NCBI GenBank assembly: GCA_000146465.1
Contig: CP001949.1
Direction: 5' to 3' (one strand)
DNA length: 64,000 bases
Part shown: in pieces, positions 19,975 to 32,122 of the stretch
How the letters are laid out: each line of letters begins with the position of its first letter
Position numbering within the stretch: position 1 is the first letter of the stretch
Translations under genes and position numbers: made by a program
Notes under the pieces: model-generated
The model's input: only the letters and a program-made list of their open reading frames with translations
What the model was told of the DNA's origin: nothing
Database searches by the model: none

Positions 19975-22770
19975 ATGTCGGACATAGAGGCCTTTGTGGC
20001 TTTTTACGAGCATCTGAAGTCTCAAGGAAAGGGAGATTCCGAGCTCCGGAGCGAGGAGCTGGAGAGGGCCATGAGGGAGATGCTGAGGAGAGCAAAGATA
20101 ACGGACTTTAAGGAGTATGCACGAAGTTACAAGTACAAGAGGAGGGAGCTGAGTGGTTTTCAGGAAGTACTGGTGTGGGGAAAGAGGAATTCCATATGGA
20201 ATGGAATGGGAGACATGTTTAGAAGCAGTATGGAGCTTCTCGGGCATTCTGGACAGGTTGATAGAATATGCTTTGACCAAGGAAATAGATTCTTTATGTC
20301 TGGAGGCTCTGATGGAATGATCAAGCTCTGGGACATTTACTCAGGGCTTTTGGTATACAGCTTCATAGGCCACCGAAACCTTGTGAGCGACCTTTGTGTT
20401 AGTAGTGATGGGAAAGTCCTTGTTTCGTGTGATTCCCACGGATTACTGAGCATCTGGTCCTTGGAGAGGTTTGAAATGCTCCTCCAGCTTGAACTGGAAT
20501 GCGAGATTGTCTTTACCGAATTTTTTGACACAGACGACCTATCTACCTATAATCTGATTGTTGTTTTGTCGAAGGGTGTTATCAAGACATACAGGTTTGA
20601 TGAGAGAAGGATAGTGTCTGAGTCTGAAAACCTTTGTCTTCTTGACGAGTCCATCAAGGGCCTGTGCTTTACAGATGGGGGAAGGTTTCTTCTGTGTAGT
20701 GGATGGTGGCCATTTCTTGTTGTCTTCGACACCCAGAACTCCGATGGATGCATAGTTCTTGAGACAAATGGAATGCCGGTGAATACCATATGCGGATCGA
20801 AGAAGGGTCTTAAGATAGCAGCAGCGTGCGACTCTCAAATATTCCAATGGACATTCTTTGCAGAGGGAAATCCTGGAATGGGAAACTTCAAAAGGAGAAC
20901 AAAGGACACGTCGTTAGAGGGACACTGGAAAAGATCTATCACCAAGATTGACATTGGGGAGAACGAGTCGATCGAGAGGATATGCTATCTCCGGGACAAT
21001 TTTCTCGTTTGCATATGCACTGATTTGAAGATAAGGATATTTGCGGGATCTGAGCTTAGATGCATAATAGACATACCGGAAATGGGGATTGCATATCCAC
21101 ATCCTCTGGAGAACATATTTGCCCTCTGCGGTAGTAGCCTTCGAATATATAGCATGGACAAGCTGATCTACGAGGAGATGCTGAGCTTTGCAGCCAATGA
21201 TGGCCAGTTTTCGAATGATGGAGAGTTCTTTGTGTTTGGAGACGAAAGAGGAGTGGTAAGGGTACTTTCGATGAGTTTCCTACCAAAGCCACCGAAGGAG
21301 CAGTTTTTTGAATCCGACCTTGACCACCTTAACTCTACTGAGTGGAATGGAGTTGTTGAGTGCAGGAGAGAATCCACTTATGAGTCGGATAGAAAGAGGA
21401 ACGAAGATTGGTTCCAAGTGGAATATGCCATTACAAAGAAGTCCAACGACTGTGTAAAGGTTGAGGATCTGGGATCAAAGCACTTTGTGAAAGACTTTGT
21501 AGGTCTTGAAGCATTCCGAAAAAAGTACATGAACATTCCCTTGCCTGGGGAGACACAGTCTGTGGAGCAGACAATGATATCTGAGTATAGCAGCAGCATC
21601 CTAGAGGGAGACACATCCAGTGGGTTTTACGAGGAATCTACAGACATGACAGGAGATGAAGAAATATTGTTTGAAGACAAAGGGGCACCTGTAAGAAGAT
21701 CCCTTGTTATCAGTGATGAGTCCTCGGAGATGGTGCCTGTTTTGAGAAGAAACACCCGGGTCTCGGAGGATGTTGAGAACGATTTAAGTCCAACAGGAAT
21801 TGTAAGAAGGTTAAGGAGATTCAATAGAGACCAGGCTGTGGAGGATGAAGAAAACGGAATCCGCATTCTGTCGCTAGAGGGAGGGGACGGTATGGACAGG
21901 AGGGGTGCTGAGCATTGTGCAGGACCTCGTAGTAGTATTAACGACAGCGAAAGAAGTGAACTAGCAGAAAACAGTGATGACCGATATGTGATTGGATTGT
22001 CTGGAGGGATAGGGCATGGAGAGCAGGAGCTAAGGCAGTATGTTCAATCGTGGCTGTCGTCTCCAAGTATGGTACCTCAGCCGGGAGATGTTGTTTACCT
22101 AAACTCCGAAGGCCTGAGAGAATTTCAAATGTTTGATGGGAGAAAGAAGTTTAAGGGGCAAGAAATATGCTCTGGATACTACGAAGTGAGAAGTCTTGAG
22201 GCAGTCAGGTACAGCCCACCATTTCTTAAGGTGGGGCTGGGCCTTAGAGACGAGAGCTTTTCGATAAGATACTACAGGTATCCTGGATCATCTCCTGTGC
22301 TCTTGTTAAGAGAACAGATGAATGCTGGGGCAGGGGATTTTATAAGTTTTGTGTCAAATGGGATAATATCTCGAGGAAGGGTGTCTGGAGTTCGAGGAAT
22401 CCATCTTGTAGTTGATTCTGGAGGGACTTCTGTCCTGGTTGAGAGGCTGGACATGTTAATTCCAAGGGCATTATTTCCTGGGGATATGAAGACCGAGATG
22501 TTAAAAGTACTCAGGCAAAGGAGAATGCACAGAGGACTTTACGTAACCCTGAGAAGAGAGTCAAATCCGTCTTACTACGAGAATGCAACTTCTACTGTCA
22601 ACCTAGGGATTATTGAAGAAAAGATCCTCCACGACTTATATCGGACAATAGGTGGACTGGAGTTTGATCTTGACATGGCAGTTAGTAACTCATTATATTT
22701 GGGGCCAGTTCTTCATGAGCATTGTCAGCAGGCTGTGGAAGGGGTCCGAACGATTATAAGAAGGATTTGA
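19975..22770 (+). CDS. Large WD40-repeat protein (931 aa) with an N-terminal WD propeller; function unknown
   Basis: WD repeats (GHSGQVDRICFDQ...SGGSDGMIKLWDI...) followed by a long non-repetitive C-terminal region. Confidence 0.5.
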   Translation: MSDIEAFVAFYEHLKSQGKGDSELRSEELERAMREMLRRAKITDFKEYARSYKYKRRELSGFQEVLVWGKRNSIWNGMGDMFRSSMELLGHSGQVDRICFDQGNRFFMSGGSDGMIKLWDIYSGLLVYSFIGHRNLVSDLCVSSDGKVLVSCDSHGLLSIWSLERFEMLLQLELECEIVFTEFFDTDDLSTYNLIVVLSKGVIKTYRFDERRIVSESENLCLLDESIKGLCFTDGGRFLLCSGWWPFLVVFDTQNSDGCIVLETNGMPVNTICGSKKGLKIAAACDSQIFQWTFFAEGNPGMGNFKRRTKDTSLEGHWKRSITKIDIGENESIERICYLRDNFLVCICTDLKIRIFAGSELRCIIDIPEMGIAYPHPLENIFALCGSSLRIYSMDKLIYEEMLSFAANDGQFSNDGEFFVFGDERGVVRVLSMSFLPKPPKEQFFESDLDHLNSTEWNGVVECRRESTYESDRKRNEDWFQVEYAITKKSNDCVKVEDLGSKHFVKDFVGLEAFRKKYMNIPLPGETQSVEQTMISEYSSSILEGDTSSGFYEESTDMTGDEEILFEDKGAPVRRSLVISDESSEMVPVLRRNTRVSEDVENDLSPTGIVRRLRRFNRDQAVEDEENGIRILSLEGGDGMDRRGAEHCAGPRSSINDSERSELAENSDDRYVIGLSGGIGHGEQELRQYVQSWLSSPSMVPQPGDVVYLNSEGLREFQMFDGRKKFKGQEICSGYYEVRSLEAVRYSPPFLKVGLGLRDESFSIRYYRYPGSSPVLLLREQMNAGAGDFISFVSNGIISRGRVSGVRGIHLVVDSGGTSVLVERLDMLIPRALFPGDMKTEMLKVLRQRRMHRGLYVTLRRESNPSYYENATSTVNLGIIEEKILHDLYRTIGGLEFDLDMAVSNSLYLGPVLHEHCQQAVEGVRTIIRRI

Positions 22771-22808
22771 GGGTTGCGGACATGTAATCAAGGGCTGGGG
22801 TTACCCTG

Positions 22809-23525
22809 ATGTACTACGACGTGAATATTAGTCTGGATTATCCAAAGCAAGATATCGAGGAGCTGGAGAAAAGTGAATACGAAGGGTTTTGTGTGAATAA
22901 GACTATGAGGCCCAAGGACCTCGAAAGACTTTCCCATGGATCTCTTGAGTTTCCTGGGGCAAAGCGTTACTACAACCGTGCGGAGATTGTATTTGGAGAG
23001 GGAGAGCAGATTGGATACGACTTTAGAAAAGCAATGAGATATGATCTGTTTGTTGTGAAGCTGAGCGGGACAGAGGGAATGGATAAGATAATAAAACATC
23101 AGCCAGATATGATTACATTTGACTATGGTGGAAAAGTCCTTCCATTTAAGCCCGGACTTGTCAAGACGGCAATCAGGGAAGGCATATTCTTTGAGATACC
23201 GATGAGAGAGGGCTTGAGAGGAGGGTCTTTAACCATCATGTGGATCCGGAATGTACGGAGACTGCTGTTTATTACAAATGGGAAGAACATTGTAGTTAGC
23301 AGTGGGGCCCAATGCTCCATGGAGATTAAGAAAGTCAGAGATGTTGTTAAGATGCTTGAGATGTTTGGACTTGGGGAGAAAAGAGCACTGGAAGTGATGC
23401 TCAACTCGGAGAGGCTTTTAAAGAGGTGTGCAATGAAAAGGCATTGCTACAGAGACTCGATTGTGCACAGTGTGGATGAAGGGGCCCTAAAAAGGGACTT
23501 TGTACTGTCTCTGTACAAAAATTGA
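22809..23525 (+). CDS. RNase P/MRP protein subunit Rpp30 (Rpp1)-like, paralog A
   Basis: PHP/TIM-barrel Rpp30 pattern: YDVNIS..., ITFDY, FFEIPM, NIVVSSGAQCSMEIKKVRDVVKMLEMFGL. Confidence 0.65.
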   Translation: MYYDVNISLDYPKQDIEELEKSEYEGFCVNKTMRPKDLERLSHGSLEFPGAKRYYNRAEIVFGEGEQIGYDFRKAMRYDLFVVKLSGTEGMDKIIKHQPDMITFDYGGKVLPFKPGLVKTAIREGIFFEIPMREGLRGGSLTIMWIRNVRRLLFITNGKNIVVSSGAQCSMEIKKVRDVVKMLEMFGLGEKRALEVMLNSERLLKRCAMKRHCYRDSIVHSVDEGALKRDFVLSLYKN

Positions 23526-23589
23526 TTTTTTACAAAATAAAGTCTACGACTAATAAGACTTGTATTTTTGATTACCTTTCCAAGGCTCG

Positions 23590-24243
23590 ATGTTCTTTGA
23601 TGTAAATGTAAGTAACAGATGCCCAAGAGGGGATCTGGATGTTTTAAAGGAGCTTGGATGGGATGGAATCTGCATAAACACTGTTGTTGGCTTGGACAAC
23701 CTGGAAGGATGGAGCAGTCCCCTTCTTGATGTGTGGAAGGACGAGAAGGCCTATGAGAGGATAGAGGTAAGATACAAGGATAATGAGAAGTGGAGTGAAG
23801 TTAGAAAGATGGTGAATCCTGATGTGCTTTCGGTGAGAATAGAAGGGGTTGAAGACTTTAAGAAAGCTCTCGAGGTTTCTCCAGACGTGATTACATTTGA
23901 TTATTCCAGGAGCTTCTGTCTCGGAAAGGACGAAGTTTTTGAAGCTGTGAAGAGAAATATATTTCTTGAGATTCCATTGGTGTGTGGGATGTATGGCCAG
24001 AGAAACAAAGTTGTATGGATGAGAAATGCCAGAAAACTTGTGGAGATCACGGGGGGAGTGAATGTTGTGGTTGGGAGCGGGGCGTCATGTTGTACAGAGA
24101 TGAGAAGTTCCCATGACATTATAAAGATATTGGGAGGACTTGGAACGAGTGGAGACTGTGGAAGGAAGATACTGCAGAACTCTGGGAGGCTGATCAGGTC
24201 CTGCAGAATAAGAAAAGGATGTGTTATGAAGGAAGAGATATGA
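23590..24243 (+). CDS. RNase P/MRP protein subunit Rpp30-like, paralog B (divergent tandem copy)
   Basis: Same collinear motifs (FDVNVS, ITFDY, FLEIPL, NVVVGSGASCCTEMRSSHDIIKILGGLG), about 30% identical to paralog A. Confidence 0.6.
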   Translation: MFFDVNVSNRCPRGDLDVLKELGWDGICINTVVGLDNLEGWSSPLLDVWKDEKAYERIEVRYKDNEKWSEVRKMVNPDVLSVRIEGVEDFKKALEVSPDVITFDYSRSFCLGKDEVFEAVKRNIFLEIPLVCGMYGQRNKVVWMRNARKLVEITGGVNVVVGSGASCCTEMRSSHDIIKILGGLGTSGDCGRKILQNSGRLIRSCRIRKGCVMKEEI

Positions 24244-24327
24244 TTGGTTCCTTGAAGATGAGATTCTGAAACATCTCTAGTTCTGTGACTACTGAGATAA
24301 ATAGAATTCTGAATCCAAACCAAAGGC

Positions 24328-25674
24328 ATGGGAGCAAGAAAAAACAGGATGAGAGGACGAGGTAGAATTCAAGGGGCTGGGAGAAGTATTGTTATTGAGA
24401 GAAGTGAGGTTAAGAAGGAAGAGAAGGCGGAAGGGAAGTTCAATGTCGATTTCCAGGAGCTTAACGAAGAACTATCTGGCATCGAATTAAAAGAGGAGAA
24501 TTCAAAGTGCTCTGATGTTGATGAGATGGTGTGTGAGAGAGTCTGCAAAGACGACAAAGTTGAGGAAGTACCTGAGGTATCCGAGATTAATAGGGAAAAT
24601 ACAGTGGATGAAGAGGTGGAGGCTGAGAAGAAGGAAGAGAATATCGAAAACAGAAAGGAAGAAGGAGAAGATGCTGTAAAAGCATCGCAAGCCCTCTATC
24701 CAGCAACACCCAGTGTATTGACCACTGTTATACCTCAGACACCAATGAGGAGGGTACTTCATGAGGAAGGAAGCCATCTTTTTGTTAAGGAGGAAAGTAT
24801 GGCTCTTCCTGGGAAGGTGATTATCAATAGGTATCCGGGACATTTGTTTATTCATATAGACCAGGTCGAGAGGTTCATGACATCCAGGAAGGAGGTGGAG
24901 AGTGTATCTATTAAGATTGAATCGAAGGGGATCTTCTATGAGACAAAGAAATATCCAGTGCAGCCGGACATAGGAATCAACGAGATGCTGCAAGTCCCCA
25001 TCAACAAGGCCGAGAGCAATGGAACACCTCTGAGATTTATACTTCTCCTGTACCACAGGTCTGGAAATATAGTAAAGTCGTGTGAAACTGTGCTTGTGGT
25101 TGACGGAAGTAGAATCCGCTCAATACATAACAATCTTCTCGAAAGTAGATTGGCATGGGACAACTATGTGTCGAGGAATCTATTTAAAAGCATTCGAAGC
25201 TTTTTTACAAGTGGAGCACCTGATGCATGGAGCCTGAAGATTTACTTGTCGTTTGTGTCGGACGATGAGCTTAGGTTGATTCCTGCGCCTCTTCCTCAGG
25301 ACCTTAAGTCCCTCAGCAAGTGGCTGGTGGTGAAGAAGTTTTCTTATAACATATGGTTTAGAGGATTTGTGAATGTCCGGGGAGATGTTGAAAAGGCATG
25401 TACCAACCTATGGAAGAGAAGATATGTTCGATGCTATGGATACATGATCTTTATATTTAACGAGCATTCGAGAAGCCTTGTTGGGACAATAAACCTCGTG
25501 GATGCAAGCTTTGATCCAAGCACGAGTAACAAGGTATATTTAGAGAACTTTCTTCGGATTAATGTTGGGGAGAAGGTGGTTGAGTTGCATTTTGACACAA
25601 AGGACAAATATAATACATGTAGGAGCGCACTTACCATGATGCTTCCACGAACACTGTTTCACAAGAAGGGGTGA
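24328..25674 (+). CDS. Hypothetical protein (448 aa) with a basic/acidic low-complexity N-terminus
   Basis: ORF only. Confidence 0.4.
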   Translation: MGARKNRMRGRGRIQGAGRSIVIERSEVKKEEKAEGKFNVDFQELNEELSGIELKEENSKCSDVDEMVCERVCKDDKVEEVPEVSEINRENTVDEEVEAEKKEENIENRKEEGEDAVKASQALYPATPSVLTTVIPQTPMRRVLHEEGSHLFVKEESMALPGKVIINRYPGHLFIHIDQVERFMTSRKEVESVSIKIESKGIFYETKKYPVQPDIGINEMLQVPINKAESNGTPLRFILLLYHRSGNIVKSCETVLVVDGSRIRSIHNNLLESRLAWDNYVSRNLFKSIRSFFTSGAPDAWSLKIYLSFVSDDELRLIPAPLPQDLKSLSKWLVVKKFSYNIWFRGFVNVRGDVEKACTNLWKRRYVRCYGYMIFIFNEHSRSLVGTINLVDASFDPSTSNKVYLENFLRINVGEKVVELHFDTKDKYNTCRSALTMMLPRTLFHKKG

Positions 25675-25806
25675 TCTGGCAGACGATGTGTTTCCTGAAA
25701 CCTATCTTATTAAAGAATTGAATACGGCCTTTCTCTATGTTCTGATGGAGGGAAGTTTTCCCGCCAAGCCTAAGGATTTCAAGAAAATCCAGGATCCTGG
25801 GAGTTT

Positions 25807-26112
25807 ATGCGGCCTGTTTTGAACGAGACAACGAATGCTACCAAAAGACTGGAGACAAAGAGTAAGGAAGGGGAAAGTGACAAGGGAAGGGTGCTCCACT
25901 TCCTGAAGGGTGTCTACGCAACGACCAGGGACTATTCGTTGAAGTATGACCTGAAGAAATGTATGGAGATAATTGAAGGGAAAGAGAACCAAGAGGTCAT
26001 CGACCTTAAGAATGCGTTGTCTGAAGCTCTTATAGAGAACGAGACGCTGTTTGCAGAGAAATGCGAGCTTGCAGTTACTCTGGAATGTATGAAAGCAGAA
26101 AGAAAGGAGTGA
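25807..26112 (+). CDS. Small hypothetical protein (101 aa)
   Basis: ORF inside an otherwise ORF-poor 840-bp stretch. Confidence 0.3.
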   Translation: MRPVLNETTNATKRLETKSKEGESDKGRVLHFLKGVYATTRDYSLKYDLKKCMEIIEGKENQEVIDLKNALSEALIENETLFAEKCELAVTLECMKAERKE

Positions 26113-26196
26113 TCACTGGACTCTGATATACATTAAAGGACTTATTTACTATTTGGTATTGAGAGATGGATTTTTGGCGGGACACCCCTCGGCTGA

Positions 26197-26472
26197 ATGG
26201 AGTTGCGATATAGATTGTAAGTGGAAGCAACTAATTTTAGGGTTTTTGGCAGAAAGGGTGTTCTGATCGAAGACCGAGCTCTGAAGGAGTTTGTGAGCGG
26301 GCTTATCCGGGGCTTTGGGGGCCTTGATTTGCTGAGCAGAGTTAGTGTAAGATGTGATGGAGGAGTGATCAATATCTCGGCGGACAAAGAGGCTTCTAGC
26401 ATTGTGCATGGATCTCTATTTCTCTGCGGAGAGTATAAGTCTGTTGGATGTAGATTTGAGCGAATCGATTAA
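26197..26472 (+). CDS. Two-exon small protein (~84 aa): exon 1 26197..26216, intron 26217..26240, exon 2 26241..26472
   Basis: ATGGAGTTGCGATATAGATT|gtaagtggaagcaactaattttag|G GTT TTT GGC... The splice fuses ATG plus 6 codons to ORF 26221..26472, which the ORF finder could only open with GTG. A CCCC motif lies just upstream of the ATG. Confidence 0.5.
26217..26240 (+). other. Spliceosomal intron (24 nt) gtaagtggaagcaactaattttag close to the 5' end of the gene
   Basis: Near-identical to the intron at 4396..4419: GTAAGTGGA...CTAATTTTAG. Confidence 0.5.
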
Positions 26473-26514
26473 ATGGTTTATCAAGTGTCATTACTATAAA
26501 TTATTCCAAATGAT

Positions 26515-27804
26515 TTGTTTAAAAAACAGATGCATAGAAAAACAATGACAGAGAGCTTGGATGGATACAGGGAGATAACCGAGATCCGGAGAGACAGGAG
26601 GATTGTGATAAGCTCTGCCGTAGATGTAGTGACTGGAGAAAAGGTTATTCTTGAGGAGGCAGATCTTTCTGGGATTTCTTCGTACTACCAGCCGTTATTG
26701 ATGGGTTTTTTACTAGAGCATGAACTCAACAACTCGCCTTATGTGATGAAGGTGATGAGGGTTTTTGAGAGCTCTAACCGAATTTATGTGGTACAGAGGC
26801 ATATGTCTCTTGGGCCTGTGGATACTACGATTGGAAACCAAATCTTTGTGAGCGATGACTTTGTGTTCTATGTATTTATGCAAGTGGTGTATGCCATGAA
26901 GCTGAACGGGGAAGAGGGATGGTTTTGGGACCGAATGTCGCCAAGATACATATGGATTGATGAGGATGGGAAAGTCCGAATATGCTGGGCAGATGTTGTA
27001 TTGGGGAATATGAAGGCGATGGTTAAGCAGTTGGATAAGTGGAACGGAAGAATGAAGAGTGAAGAGAAGACAACAGGGGGAGATAAGGTTAATTCTGGGT
27101 GCGAGGGGTCGGTGTCCTTTGGAAATCTAAGAAGGATTTTTGTGTCGCTAGCTCTGGGTGTATCGGAAGTGTCGAAAGTCATGTATTCTTGGAACGGCAG
27201 GATTGGGAGATCTGGATTCTTGGGACATATCCAGGGTCTTTCGCCGGATCTAGACGGGCTTGCATCGCTTCTGTTTGAGGATGGAGTCGGGATAAAAGAT
27301 CTTGAAGAGTATACACGGAGGATGATCCAAGAAAAGAGAATAGCCAGTAATCCTCGGGAGATATTCAAATCCCTGGGAACTGTTTTGGAAGAGATGAAAA
27401 GAGACGAAAACAAGACGTTGGAAGAAACAAGGGCATGGAATGGAAAGTCCCCGAGAACAGAAGAACCGGAAAGCGGAAGTGGGTCTGAGGAGAGCGGGAG
27501 AAATATGAGCGAGAGTGGGAGTAGAGGAGATGATGAAAGAGTTGGATCTTTTGGGACAAGAGAGTACAGAAAAGGGAGATTCTATGTATGCGATGCCATT
27601 CCCTTAGGAGAAAGAGAAAAAGGCCTAGGGATGAATGATCAGATGAAGAGAATGGGCCGAATTGTGAATGTACAAAATCGGCAGATAAGTCTTCTTACAG
27701 GTGTAATGAGGAAATCAGGACTCCTAGACAAGGAGACAGATGCAGAACTTGGAGAATTAGAAGATCTAGTGAATTTTCTGTTGTTTGGAGTGGAGAGGCA
27801 GTAG
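26515..27804 (+). CDS. Protein kinase-like fold lacking canonical catalytic motifs (putative pseudokinase) with an acidic/Ser-rich tail
   Basis: Kinase-like spacing (ITEIRRDRRIVISSAVD...KVILEE...YVMKVMRVFES...YVVQRHM...WFWDRMSPRYIWIDEDGKVRICWADV). I see no GxGxxG, no HRD and no DFG. Confidence 0.4.
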   Translation: MFKKQMHRKTMTESLDGYREITEIRRDRRIVISSAVDVVTGEKVILEEADLSGISSYYQPLLMGFLLEHELNNSPYVMKVMRVFESSNRIYVVQRHMSLGPVDTTIGNQIFVSDDFVFYVFMQVVYAMKLNGEEGWFWDRMSPRYIWIDEDGKVRICWADVVLGNMKAMVKQLDKWNGRMKSEEKTTGGDKVNSGCEGSVSFGNLRRIFVSLALGVSEVSKVMYSWNGRIGRSGFLGHIQGLSPDLDGLASLLFEDGVGIKDLEEYTRRMIQEKRIASNPREIFKSLGTVLEEMKRDENKTLEETRAWNGKSPRTEEPESGSGSEESGRNMSESGSRGDDERVGSFGTREYRKGRFYVCDAIPLGEREKGLGMNDQMKRMGRIVNVQNRQISLLTGVMRKSGLLDKETDAELGELEDLVNFLLFGVERQ

Positions 27805-27867
27805 AAACATATTATAGATAAAATCTGTTTAATCTATTTCTTCTTTGAACGATCTCCAAGCCCTCGA

Positions 27868-28758
27868 ATGGAGGAAATCGTTTACTTATGCGATTTGAGC
27901 TTTTACTCGTCGTCTGTGGCAGGAGATTCGCTAATTGCCTCGGACAAGATGGGGGGAGTACACATAATAGCTCCGGAAATAAGCACAGTGAATATAGATC
28001 ATTTCAAGAAGGATGTTAACTTCTATCCTGTTGATGATTTATGCTTCACCACCACAGACATGTTCAAGGGAATACGGGTGTGGGATAGATGCCGGGGAGA
28101 CATAGTGTATTCATATAAAGAAGATAGCATCAAGATGCATACATACAGCAGGACGGGATGTTTAGCAGCTGTTGGAGAAGGATGTGTGAAACTTTATGAT
28201 CTCCGTGTCAGGTACAATATTGATGCAGTGCCTCTAAAGATGTGCAAGAAAGCAGAATGGGGAAATGACAGGATTTATTGCATCAACGACGAGTGTGTGG
28301 TTGAATATGATACTCGGAACATGAGTAGCATGGTATGCGGAGAGAAGAATGAGGCCTATCTGAAGAAAAAGAATATTGAGGGAATTCTCGACCTTATCAG
28401 TATTAGTAAGGGGGAGTTTTGTACGGTGAAAAGAGATGGGGTCCCATATCTCATGAGATTGTCTGGGGTAGATGTGATGGAAGGGACAAGAAGAGCATCG
28501 ATTGGATGGAAGATGATAAAGGTTAAGGATACGTCTGATGATTTTGTGATTGGAATGGTAAGCGAAAACACTGTAGGATTCTACGGGTATAAGGACACGT
28601 GGACTCATGAATTTGATGGGATTAGTCATGTGGACTGGATGTGCTTTTCCAAAAGGAAAATCTATATGTTTGCAGATAAAAAGATTTATCTCATAGAGAG
28701 AGAGTACGAAGGGTTGAAGGAGCTTATGAAGGAAGGGCCTGGGTCCTTGGAAGAATGA
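27868..28758 (+). CDS. Hypothetical protein (296 aa), possibly a beta-propeller
   Basis: ORF; weak WD-like segments. Confidence 0.35.
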   Translation: MEEIVYLCDLSFYSSSVAGDSLIASDKMGGVHIIAPEISTVNIDHFKKDVNFYPVDDLCFTTTDMFKGIRVWDRCRGDIVYSYKEDSIKMHTYSRTGCLAAVGEGCVKLYDLRVRYNIDAVPLKMCKKAEWGNDRIYCINDECVVEYDTRNMSSMVCGEKNEAYLKKKNIEGILDLISISKGEFCTVKRDGVPYLMRLSGVDVMEGTRRASIGWKMIKVKDTSDDFVIGMVSENTVGFYGYKDTWTHEFDGISHVDWMCFSKRKIYMFADKKIYLIEREYEGLKELMKEGPGSLEE

Positions 28759-28820
28759 GCAAGGAAGCCCCTGGAGATTGTAGTGAATAAAAATGGATTA
28801 GGAGATGGGCTGTAAACAAA

Positions 28821-30986
28821 ATGAAATTCAAGAGGACAATACAGAAAACATTTGGATCGTCGAAGATAAAGAGTATACAGGTGCATCCTACCAAGCCGAT
28901 AGGGATAATGGGGCTGTTTTCTGGGGATATCCAGGTTTGGGACATCGACAAAATGGGAATGATAAACAGCATCCATGTGTGTAATGAACCGATAAGAACC
29001 TGTGCAATCTTGAGTAGGATGGACTGGGTACTTGTGGGAAGTGACAACGGAAAGGTTAGCATATACGAACTGGGAAAGTACAGGAAGATCAAGATGTTTC
29101 ATGGGCATGACGACTTCATCAGGAAGATCGAGGTCCACCCACAGGAACCGATGTTTTTGACTGCCTCCGATGATTCGACACTGAAGAGCTGGACATATGA
29201 AGAGGAGATTGTTCAGAAGATGGTATACACAGGACACAAGCACTTTGTAATGGATGTTTGTTTTTACCCGAATGACTGCAGTAAGTTCGTATCGTGCTCT
29301 CTGGACTCCACAATCAAGGTATGGCACATAGGACAGCCGCATTGTGTGAAAACGTTCAAGGGACACGCGTCTGGAGTAAACAGTATATGCTTTCTGAGTG
29401 GAGATTATCTGGTTTCTGGGGCAGACGACCTAACATTGAAGGTTTGGGACTTCCAAACAACACAGTGCATAACAACCCTCGCAGGACATACAAACAATGT
29501 CAACAAGGTGTATCCGTTTAGTAGCTTCTCTCTTTTTGCTTCATGTGGAGAGGATGGAAGCATGCGGCTATGGAACAGCAAGACATTCAAGCAGGAGGAT
29601 CTGATTATGCTGCAAGGGGGAAGAGTATGGGATGTGAAGGAGAAGGACGGAAGGATAATTGTTGGGTGTGATGAAGAGCTTGTCTTTATCAATGCTTGGC
29701 AGGGATCATCTCTTGTTCGGATGAGTAGGAACAGAATATTCTACTCTGCATCTGGGTCTATGTTTGGTACCAGGAGTGACAACATAGGTGTGGTCAAAGA
29801 GTTGCATAACATTGGATTCTACCCCGACGAGTTAGAGGTGTCCCCGAGTGGAAAGACAATAGCAGTTGGGAACGAGGGAGAGTTTAAGATCTTTTCATCT
29901 CTGGGATTTCGAAACAAGTTTGGCGGAGAGGGAAGAGATTTCCACTTCATAGAGGATGATGAATTTGTTGTGAGAAACGGAGAGGTTGTGAACTTCTACA
30001 AGAAGGCCGAAGTGATCCGAAGTATTAGCATCAAGGGGATCAGCAAAGTGTTTTTTCTAAGTCCTAGGTTGATAGGATGCAATGTCTGCGATCAGACGAG
30101 AATTTACCTATCTACTGGAGAGTTCGTGTCATCTGTTAGTCATGCGTCCGACCATCTTGCCATGATCGGAGACTTTCTGATTGCATGTGGAGCATTTATA
30201 AGCATCTACAGAGTGGACCATGAAGTGATCAACGGGTTTATTGAACAGGAGATTGAGATTCCAGAGGAAGGGATAAAGGAAGCATTAATACATCTTGGGA
30301 CTGAGTACTATTCGGTAGCATCCTGGTGTGCAAAAGAAGATGTTTTCTACTTTGTATCAAATGGTAAGGGATACTATCTCATCCTGGGAGACAAGCCATA
30401 TGTATATCATTTTTCATCTATTGACGGCACAATTGCCGGAGTTGAGAACGGAGTTCTGTTTTATCTCCGCGACAAATCAATTGAGTGCAAAAGGATAGAT
30501 GGGGAGTTTCTTGAGTTCCAAAGATCTGTAATACTTGGGAAAGAATACAAGGTGACGGAGGGGATCCGCAGTAAGGCGATTGCATTTTTCGAGTCTCTGG
30601 AAATGCACGAGAATGCTCTAGATCTTTGCATAGACGACAACCAGAGATTTGAGATTCTTCTCAAGCTGGACAGGTATGATGAGGCATTTTCAAAAGCAAA
30701 CAGTATAGTCAAGTATGACAAGCTTGGAAGATACTTTCTCAGGGCCGGAGAGCTTCCGAAGGCATCTGAATGCTTTCTTAAGTCGAGGAACTGGGTAAGC
30801 TTGCTCCTTTCAGACATTCTATCTTCGAAGAAAAATCTTTCTCTTGCAGCATCCGAGTGTAAAAAAGAGGGAAGGCTGAACCATGCATTCTTCGCATACC
30901 TCAAGAGCGGACAGTATATTGAGTGTGCCAAACTGCTGGAAAAAACTCCTTTCTCGACCTTGTTTGCTAAGAACTATCTTGATTAA
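28821..30986 (+). CDS. SEC27: Coatomer beta' subunit (COPB2/Sec27)
   Basis: The N-terminal double WD propeller is collinear with Sec27 (IQVHPTKPIGIMGLFSGDIQVWD...GSDNGKVSIYE...HDDFIRKIEVHPQEPMFLTASDDSTLKSW...), followed by an alpha-solenoid. Confidence 0.85.
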   Translation: MKFKRTIQKTFGSSKIKSIQVHPTKPIGIMGLFSGDIQVWDIDKMGMINSIHVCNEPIRTCAILSRMDWVLVGSDNGKVSIYELGKYRKIKMFHGHDDFIRKIEVHPQEPMFLTASDDSTLKSWTYEEEIVQKMVYTGHKHFVMDVCFYPNDCSKFVSCSLDSTIKVWHIGQPHCVKTFKGHASGVNSICFLSGDYLVSGADDLTLKVWDFQTTQCITTLAGHTNNVNKVYPFSSFSLFASCGEDGSMRLWNSKTFKQEDLIMLQGGRVWDVKEKDGRIIVGCDEELVFINAWQGSSLVRMSRNRIFYSASGSMFGTRSDNIGVVKELHNIGFYPDELEVSPSGKTIAVGNEGEFKIFSSLGFRNKFGGEGRDFHFIEDDEFVVRNGEVVNFYKKAEVIRSISIKGISKVFFLSPRLIGCNVCDQTRIYLSTGEFVSSVSHASDHLAMIGDFLIACGAFISIYRVDHEVINGFIEQEIEIPEEGIKEALIHLGTEYYSVASWCAKEDVFYFVSNGKGYYLILGDKPYVYHFSSIDGTIAGVENGVLFYLRDKSIECKRIDGEFLEFQRSVILGKEYKVTEGIRSKAIAFFESLEMHENALDLCIDDNQRFEILLKLDRYDEAFSKANSIVKYDKLGRYFLRAGELPKASECFLKSRNWVSLLLSDILSSKKNLSLAASECKKEGRLNHAFFAYLKSGQYIECAKLLEKTPFSTLFAKNYLD

Positions 30987-31054
30987 ATAAGTCGGTGGCT
31001 ATGTTCTTCTTTCCAGGACCCGGGATACACAAATTCTGATAGGAAGGATCCCTG

Positions 31055-32122
31055 ATGGAGAATCTAGAAAAATGGTATCCGATAGAGGTGACCACACACA
31101 ACTTGCATTTCCATGAGGAAGCATCCATATTCACAATGCATGGGAATGAAGAGTTTATAGCCACGGGAGGAGGGGATAAGGATATAAGACTGTGGAGGGT
31201 GGAAAAAAGTGCATCTAAGAACAAGGATTTTTGTTATACCACGGCAGCCAACTCCTCTATAAAGATAAGATATCACACAGTACTTTCTGGACATCACAGG
31301 AGCGTTAATTGTGTCAGATTTCAAGGGGATCTATTAGCATCTTGTTCCGATGGTGGAGAAGTCATCTTGTGGAGCGGAGAAAAGCCGCATGTAGTCCGAA
31401 GGATTGATGGAGATGATGCATATGAGCTTGTCTGGGGAAATGGGCATCTCTTTGTTGGGTTTTCCAGCGGAAACATATTGGTGTACCAGGTGACTCTGAA
31501 CAACGAATCTCTTAGAGGGGACGAAAACCATTCCAACTCGAGAGCTTCAAAGGACGAGGATGAGAAAAAGAAAGATTGGAGCCAGGAGATATCTACCAAG
31601 TTGGTGCAGAAGGTACAATGCCATGGAGATATAATACAGGGATTGGCATTTAACCATCGCTTTGGAGTCCTAACATCTTTAAGCAAAGACCGCACGGGAA
31701 GGACGTTTGTGTTTACCGACAAGCTTGTTGCAATAGAGAAAATGGAATATGTTGATGGAGAGAGGCTCTTTACAGCGGGAAGAGGCTTCTTTAGAAGGTT
31801 TTCATACTCTCCAGATGGGAAACTTTTATATCTTGCATGCTGCAAATCCAACACTGTTGCTGTACTTCACTATCCATTCCGAATGGAGCACATGTATGGA
31901 ACAATGGGACCCTTTGACTCGGAACCTTTGAGAATAATGTGTGATGAAAATAAGGTGTTTATTGCAACCAAGAAGAACTTGTATGTGTTTGCGGATCAGA
32001 AGCTGGAGTTCTGTGTAGAAAACATTTCCTTTATGACCATAACAGATGGATGGGTGTTTGATGGAATTTGCTTTCTGTGTTCCTTGGACGGATTTCTGTC
32101 ATCGTTGAGCATGAAAAGATGA
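31055..32122 (+). CDS. WD40 protein of the CAF-1 p60 (Cac2)/HIRA family
   Basis: N-terminus TGGGDKDIRLWRV...HHRSVNCVRFQGDLLASCSDGGEVILW, typical of chromatin assembly factor B-type propellers. Confidence 0.5.
   Translation: MENLEKWYPIEVTTHNLHFHEEASIFTMHGNEEFIATGGGDKDIRLWRVEKSASKNKDFCYTTAANSSIKIRYHTVLSGHHRSVNCVRFQGDLLASCSDGGEVILWSGEKPHVVRRIDGDDAYELVWGNGHLFVGFSSGNILVYQVTLNNESLRGDENHSNSRASKDEDEKKKDWSQEISTKLVQKVQCHGDIIQGLAFNHRFGVLTSLSKDRTGRTFVFTDKLVAIEKMEYVDGERLFTAGRGFFRRFSYSPDGKLLYLACCKSNTVAVLHYPFRMEHMYGTMGPFDSEPLRIMCDENKVFIATKKNLYVFADQKLEFCVENISFMTITDGWVFDGICFLCSLDGFLSSLSMKR

Follow-up and report, generated by a model that had tools for sequence, protein, structure and literature searches.

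RNase P, like RNase MRP, is an essential, ancient ribonucleoprotein, and the origin of the asymmetry and complexity of their protein shells is a standing evolutionary question. The solved eukaryotic holoenzymes, those of yeast and human, each hold two molecules of the subunit Rpp30 (Rpp1 in yeast) in non-equivalent positions (PMC8509007, PMC7351766). In the human Pop5-Rpp14-(Rpp30)2 assembly, one Rpp30 touches Rpp40 and Pop5 and the other touches Rpp29 (PMC8509007); one Rpp30 forms a dimer with Pop5 and the second with Pop8/Rpp14 (PMC13462272), and the substrate pocket of MRP is lined by only one Rpp1 copy (PMC7351766). In both yeast and human a single gene supplies the two positions, whereas at the locus described here, from Encephalitozoon intestinalis ATCC 50506, two adjacent genes, termed A and B, encode Rpp30-family proteins that differ in their C-terminal tail and in charge. 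The locus lies within a stretch of 64,000 nucleotides of contig CP001949.1 (GenBank assembly GCA_000146465.1), hereafter the window, and both encoded proteins match the E. intestinalis ATCC 50506 genome at 100%. Encephalitozoon has one of the smallest nuclear genomes known and a pared-down repertoire of RNase P/MRP proteins, so that one would not expect an additional subunit gene to be retained. Copy A appears to be the canonical Rpp30/Rpp1 ortholog, and copy B is a derived, lineage-specific Rpp30 paralog.

The sub-complex to which Rpp30 belongs differs little between the two enzymes. In yeast, RNase P and MRP contain practically the same Pop5-Pop8-(Rpp1)2 heterotetramer, with a root-mean-square deviation (RMSD) of 1.7 Å (PMC7351766), and human MRP uses the same POP5-(RPP30)2-RPP14-RPP40 module (PMC13184271). 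Yeast Rpp1 and human Rpp30 are each represented by 10 chains in 5 entries of the Protein Data Bank (PDB), which agrees with two copies in each holoenzyme. The modelled lengths of paired chains were found to be unequal, with 242 residues for chain I against 293 for chain J in the yeast structure 6agb, and 236 against 247 for chains I and J in the human structure 6ahr, which indicates that the two positions order different amounts of Rpp1/Rpp30.

Duplicated or reduced subunits have been described in several related systems. The symmetric archaeal (Pop5-Rpp30)2 arrangement became asymmetric as one partner was duplicated and diverged, with only Pop5 still binding CR-IV (PMC6565675, PMC1636426). 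This duplication of Pop5 into Pop5 and Pop8/Rpp14 concerned the same sub-complex and followed the same logic as that of A and B, although it is ancient and lies on the Pop5 side, whereas the A/B duplication is found only in the Encephalitozoon/Ordospora group and lies on the Rpp30 side. A 2006 inventory of the subunits detected no Pop8/Rpp14 in Microsporidia (PMC1636426). Rpr2 of RNase P and Snm1 of MRP are likewise paralogs, both descended from a single RNase P protein and each specialised, but they are located at the S-domain/substrate side where the two enzymes differ, whereas Rpp30 sits on the near-identical C-domain (PMC7351766). In the type T archaeal RNase P of Pyrobaculum, a shortened Rpp30 still binds Pop5, the missing elements lying opposite the Pop5 interface (PMC13462272); this reduced protein is the sole Rpp30 and is accompanied by a minimised RNA, whereas B coexists with a full-length copy. 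The tandem Rpp14 duplicates of Drosophila resemble A and B in being adjacent genes of the same palm module that are kept in several species (PMC1636426), although they belong to a different subunit family and no functional model has been reported for them.

Family membership, tail and charge of the two copies

Copy A (positions 22809-23525, + strand) encodes 238 amino acids and is annotated as an 'RNase P subunit p30-like protein', and copy B (23590-24243, + strand; Eint_081200) encodes 217 amino acids and is annotated as an 'uncharacterized protein'. An initial annotation, made from the sequence alone, had described two adjacent same-strand genes of these sizes; the open reading frames (ORFs) were found exactly as it stated, 64 bp apart, and every Rpp30 motif that it quoted was present, reading MYYDVNIS in A and MFFDVNVS in B, FFEIP and FLEIP, NIVVSSGA and NVVVGSGA, and ITFDY in both. 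Its figure of about 30% identity agreed with BLASTP, which gave 32% over 213 amino acids (E = 3e-36), a similarity far beyond chance. The family assignment also held under a profile search, with both copies exceeding the curated gathering cut-off of 35 bits for the Pfam family RNase_P_p30 (PF01876): A scored 122.6 bits over residues 3-198 and B 85.9 bits over residues 15-195. No other Pfam family reached threshold when B was scanned, and this copy had gained no new domain or motif. Against the sequences of solved structures, A matched yeast Rpp1 (7.9e-8) and human Rpp30 (2.7e-6), with an alignment that follows the barrel and extends into the first part of the C-terminal tail, and B matched yeast Rpp1 weakly (6e-3).

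Structure prediction with AlphaFold2 gave a pLDDT (predicted local distance difference test) score of 87.7 for A and 81.7 for B. The top Foldseek matches of both models were Rpp1 (6agb, 7c79, 6w6v), human Rpp30 (6ahr) and archaeal Rpp30, the best match of A being 6agb_J (E 1.3e-14) and the top matches of B having E values of 6e-12 and weaker. Query-normalised template modelling scores against the yeast and human chains were 0.69-0.79 for A and 0.73-0.78 for B, and PHP and amidohydrolase barrels ranked below the Rpp1/Rpp30 chains for both models. In their predicted fold, A and B share the seven-stranded alpha/beta barrel of Rpp30/Rpp1, and by profile and predicted fold alike they belong to the same family as the yeast and human proteins. 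A total of 32 positions were at least 90% conserved in both paralogs and fell on the signature motifs, including WMRNxR, NVVxSGA and E172; among them were W145, N148, R150, N160, S165-G166-A167, L183, G187 and N199. The regain of a PHP catalytic site by B was considered and rejected, the N-terminal strand reading DVN in both copies without a histidine cluster, and no other Pfam family being matched.

The two copies differ past the shared CAxKRY motif. Here all A copies carry on, as do nearly all other microsporidian p30 proteins, with a GxIVH-like strand and then the motif [DE]EGxLK[RK]DF[IL]. In E. intestinalis the C-terminal extension of A (23439-23522, + strand) comprises residues 211-238, in which the beta-strand segment YRDSIVH precedes the helix motif DEGxLKRDF. 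The tail motif was present in all 13 of the A orthologs and also in Nosema, Vairimorpha, Hamiltosporidium, Spraguea, Binucleata, Gurleya and Edhazardia; four columns were invariant over 35 tail-bearing sequences, K228 among them, and F231 was more than 90% conserved. The B copies, by contrast, end 8-14 residues after the conserved cysteine, and DEGxLKxDF occurred in none of those whose C-terminus was present, although in several of them the beta-strand segment survives in part, as no more than a GxV[VM]K remnant. Profile alignment placed CAxKRYxxxGxVVxxxDE, and with it the CAMKRHCYRDSIVHSVDEG segment of A, on residues 209-225 of M. jannaschii Rpp30 and residues 236-254 of yeast Rpp1. The C-terminal tail of M. 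jannaschii Rpp30 forms an edge beta strand of the Rpp29 barrel, and this link between tail and Rpp29 is, according to the authors, conserved in human RNase P (PMC6565675). Judged by its alignment, the tail segment of A is consistent with the Rpp29-docking tail of that study; the tail region of the A model had a pLDDT of 64-68.

Charge separated the paralogs as well. Counted up to A residue 210, the barrel core carried a mean net charge of +7.4 in A (+4 to +10) and +0.2 in B (-3 to +3), with no overlap between the ranges (Mann-Whitney p 3.6e-5, a statistic that ignores phylogeny). The corresponding mean in single-copy microsporidia was +5.4, and the values for E. intestinalis itself were +5 for A and 0 for B. 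Regional constraint, taken as the mean pairwise identity over nine matched genomes, was 0.59-0.81 in A and 0.47-0.69 in B across A residues 121-210, and 0.52-0.74 in A and 0.18-0.48 in B across A residues 61-120. Per-site conservation was correlated between the two copies (Spearman 0.46, p 1e-12). The Pop5 face of archaeal Rpp30 is made up of alpha6, the beta7-alpha8 loop and alpha8, Pfu residues 179-191 (PMC3227427), and low-identity alignments suggest that it corresponds approximately to A residues 140-200, where B stays conserved.

Selection was examined as the ratio of nonsynonymous to synonymous substitution rates (dN/dS, or omega) by the NG86 and YN00 methods in the closest species pair, E. 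hellem and E. romaleae, for which dS was about 1, so that the omega values are approximate, yet all of them were far below 1. Copy A had a dN of 0.076 and omega of 0.057 (NG86) and 0.089 (YN00), and copy B a dN of 0.153 and omega of 0.145 and 0.181. For comparison, the upstream WD40 gene gave a dN of 0.091 with omega of 0.06 and 0.10, and the downstream gene of 448 amino acids a dN of 0.111 with omega of 0.14 and 0.20. Saturation of dS made dN/dS unusable for pairs more distant than those within Encephalitozoon. Both A and B are under purifying selection, with B evolving about twice as fast as A. Relative-rate tests found more unique changes in B than in A against every outgroup tried; the excess was significant against the lineages P0022 and P0023 in three of four genomes (p ~1e-5) and not significant against Vairimorpha.

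Distribution, age and loss of copy B

The A and B tandem was found in ten lineages, consisting of four Encephalitozoon species, Ordospora and five further relatives. The gene order, in which a WD40 gene of about 930 amino acids is followed by A, B, a gene of about 450 amino acids and DUF5101, is kept in E. hellem, E. romaleae, E. cuniculi, Ordospora colligata and two Logan assemblies, and on two more contigs an A-type protein is encoded together with a B-type one (P0006 with P0020, and P0010 with P0019). A further contig, from JGI 3300073837 (L004:1-4185), carries A and then a B whose sequence breaks off where the contig stops. Its upstream side is rearranged, the tandem being preceded by an inverted coatomer-beta gene and a gene of 135 amino acids in place of the WD40 gene. 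As the upstream genes differ yet A and B are adjacent, the pair stayed together through local rearrangement. Wherever the full gene was present, the B orthologs had an intact ORF of 212-221 amino acids, and they were always located directly downstream of A. The A orthologs were 49-69% identical across Encephalitozoon, Ordospora and relatives. The spacer between the two genes (23526-23589, + strand), which was read from the sequence as 64 bp in E. intestinalis, measures 62-64 bp in E. hellem, E. romaleae and E. cuniculi.

Word-indexed homolog searches, run with single sequences and with the alignment of A and B, recovered nothing beyond the Encephalitozoon/Ordospora group, and when 1.8 billion representative proteins were searched exhaustively with a profile, 23 matches fell below 1e-30. 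Strong profile matches to one p30 protein each were obtained for Hamiltosporidium, Nosema granulosis, N. bombycis, Vairimorpha necatrix and V. apis, as well as for Binucleata, Gurleya, Spraguea and Edhazardia. The copy number in related genomes, to which the initial annotation had drawn attention, came to two in the Encephalitozoon/Ordospora group, one nested lineage apart, and to one in the other named microsporidia, counted among the best 150 matches in a library clustered at 50% identity. A single Rpp30 copy appears to be the norm elsewhere in Microsporidia, and Rosenblad et al. (2006) listed Rpp1 as a single ubiquitous subunit (PMC1636426).

The phylogeny was inferred by neighbour-joining with bootstrap only. 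In this tree the B copies formed one clade whose internal branching mirrors that of the A clade, and several of the shallower nodes were reasonably well supported: among the B copies, Encephalitozoon with a relative (0.99) and these together with Ordospora (0.93), and among the A copies, Encephalitozoon (0.89) and a group termed L003 (0.81). The node joining A and B reached only 0.12, and with the deep nodes so low the tree alone cannot place the duplication relative to P0022, P0023 and P0029. The last of these was grouped with B (bootstrap 0.24), which is probably due to long-branch attraction, because P0029 retains a tail-like ending. With the deep nodes weak, the argument that B arose once leans more on derived characters common to its copies. 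Five substitutions are fixed in and common to all of the B copies (Y3F, T120E, E124R, R133V and M182I), and all those with a complete C-terminus share the same truncation and the same loss of charge.

One lineage was found to have A but not B. In the Logan assemblies SRR21023578 and SRR21023580, only copy A is present (L010:10001-10874 and L011:840-1713, respectively) and the downstream neighbour gene follows after 148 bp, with an identical junction in both of these independent samples. A tblastn search with five B proteins over 20.7 kb around the A-only locus matched only gene A, and no B-like sequence was found within 10 kb on either side. The neighbouring genes on L010 closely match the large ORFs of the window in order and size. 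The A copy of this lineage nests within the L003 group, all other members of which carry B, and this placement among B-carriers points to a secondary loss of B or to its relocation more than 10 kb away.

A proposed division of the Rpp30 positions and alternative explanations

The initial annotation had taken a retained, diverged duplicate in a minimal genome to suggest subfunctionalisation. This stands insofar as A and B are real paralogs under selection; what it omitted is that each holoenzyme already holds two non-equivalent Rpp30 molecules, which offers a more direct route to subfunctionalisation than a split between RNase P and MRP. An ancestral Rpp30/Rpp1 gene may have been tandemly duplicated in the common ancestor of Encephalitozoon, Ordospora and several relatives. 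Copy A would then have remained unchanged in type, keeping the basic barrel and the complete C-terminal extension, whilst B would have been simplified through loss of the DEGxLKxDF tail motif, loss of about seven net positive charges and relaxation of barrel residues 61-120. In this scheme B would have kept the conserved C-terminal half of the barrel, the Pop5-binding face in archaeal Rpp30. Only one of the two Rpp30 molecules borders the substrate pocket, and a link to the single Rpp29/Pop4 is open to only one; A and B would each take one of the two positions, converting (Rpp30)2 into an A/B hetero-pair in which B sits where less RNA contact and no full tail are required. The divergence of B, with its tail and basic charge lost and the Pop5-face region retained, fits such a positional split, and we put at about even the chance that A and B divide the two non-equivalent Rpp30 positions between them.

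A number of observations weigh against this division of positions. We infer both the presence of B in RNase P/MRP and the position it would take. The GxV[VM]K remnant in several B copies makes the loss of the Pop4 link by B less than certain. A profile of the tail alone gave nothing significant against the PDB sequences, leaving DEGxLKxDF without a detectable counterpart in the solved structures. The mapping of the Pop5 face is approximate, relying on profile alignments at about 15% identity, and a profile of A and B did not recover Pyrococcus Rpp30 at E <= 0.01. Monophyly received bootstrap values of just 0.33 for A and 0.34 for B. Furthermore, B is dispensable or relocatable in the A-only lineage, and its loss there fits a partly redundant subunit and equally fits a non-essential accessory role. 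The same loss is nonetheless compatible with an A/B hetero-pair provided that A remains able to occupy both sites, as in the ancestral state.

The alternative that survives best, though we consider it rather unlikely, is that B is neofunctionalised or moonlights outside RNase P/MRP, in a different ribonucleoprotein, at chromatin or with a PHP-like enzyme activity. Non-canonical roles of Rpp30 have been reported in other organisms (PMC8509007), and the features that B has lost, the tail motif and the basic charge, are those linked to holoenzyme integration; its roughly twofold faster evolution and the fact that it can be lost would also suit such a role. However, the 32 conserved positions that it shares with A lie on the signature motifs of the family, the per-site conservation of the two copies is correlated, and the best-retained region of B is the Pop5-binding half. 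Nor has any domain or motif been gained, and nothing suggests a PHP metal site.

Specialisation by enzyme, with one copy serving RNase P and the other MRP, was one form of subfunctionalisation offered as an example by the initial annotation. The yeast Rpr2/Snm1 paralogs provide a precedent and both copies are under selection, but no positive evidence for such a split was found and we judge it distinctly unlikely. The yeast heterotetramer binds the conserved C-domain alike in both enzymes, as its 1.7 Å RMSD attests (PMC7351766), and with the human MRP using the same module (PMC13184271) there is no known structural pressure for an enzyme-specific Rpp30; the known P- or MRP-specific proteins touch the S-domain or the substrate side. 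As each enzyme would go on requiring two molecules of its own paralog, a tail-less, uncharged B would moreover have to fill both positions in one of them, and B has been lost in one lineage.

It is very unlikely, in our estimation, that B is a largely redundant duplicate, an inferior but still competent Rpp30 subunit that dosage or drift maintains and that has no role of its own. Its loss from one lineage without replacement at the locus would be expected of such a gene, as would a constraint that is weaker than that on A throughout. Yet the tandem has been kept in ten lineages of very compact genomes over a span in which synonymous sites have become saturated (dS above 1), and the five fixed substitutions, the same truncation and the same charge loss across the B copies argue for a stable selected state and not for drift. 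That B is a decaying pseudogene or an annotation artefact, as its weak match to solved Rpp1 (6e-3) and its 'uncharacterized' or 'hypothetical' status in the annotation of some genomes might suggest, is scarcely credible, a pseudogene being effectively ruled out by the intact ORFs and an omega of 0.15-0.18, near the 0.14-0.20 of the downstream gene, and the score of 85.9 bits in Pfam and the confidently predicted fold pointing the same way.

Genomic surroundings and evolutionary meaning

The tandem is flanked by two larger genes on the same strand. The upstream gene (19975-22770, + strand; 931 amino acids) has WD40/beta-propeller Pfam matches mostly within residues 65-290, with a single weak match reaching residue 369, and at least 560 C-terminal residues match no family; its size (897-938 amino acids) and position are kept in all relatives with this gene order. 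The downstream gene (24328-25674, + strand; 448 amino acids) matches no Pfam family above threshold. Its counterparts measure 337-473 amino acids at every related locus, the omega of about 0.14-0.20 places it under purifying selection, and the N-terminal third is acidic and rich in lysine and glutamate. An AATAAA hexamer is located at 23536-23541 in the spacer between A and B, starting 11 nt beyond the A stop codon, and is a possible polyadenylation-like signal, which would imply separate 3' end formation for A. The GC skew ranges from +0.18 to +0.36 along the consecutive + strand ORFs at 20000-32000, and is near zero or negative where the gene strand switches, a pattern that suggests a bias of G over C on the coding strand. 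In an Rfam scan of the whole 64-kb window no family, tRNA included, reached its gathering score, and no P or MRP RNA gene therefore adjoins A and B.

The existence of two genes is already implicit in the databases, where several of the proteins are annotated as 'p30-like'. In the literature searched, no description was found of a microsporidian Rpp30 paralog pair or of a tail-less Rpp30 subfamily, and the text of the 2006 subunit inventory does not mention an Rpp30 pair (PMC1636426). One match that joined Encephalitozoon, RNase P and p30 was spurious, 'P30' being a grant number. In several genomes Eint_081200 and its orthologs carry the label 'uncharacterized' or 'hypothetical', which can be replaced with that of a divergent Rpp30 paralog.

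Should A and B divide the two Rpp30 positions, the pair would separate by natural divergence the features that each site needs, namely the tail, the basic surface and the Pop5 face; as one polypeptide serves both sites in yeast and human, these needs are not readable from sequence there. It would also present a clean natural case of a homomeric pair turned into an obligate or semi-obligate hetero-pair; the lineage without B would then have gone back to the earlier state, and would furnish a natural reversion control. We give slightly less than an even chance to the further proposition that the filling of the two positions by a tailed, basic A and a tail-less, neutral B constitutes an independent, recent, Rpp30-side route to asymmetry. 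In that event, asymmetry on the Rpp30 side would have arisen in a group where no Pop8/Rpp14 has been detected, whereas others became asymmetric long ago and on the Pop5 side. The relevance of the pair would be mainly to work on RNase P and MRP and to the evolution of protein complexes.

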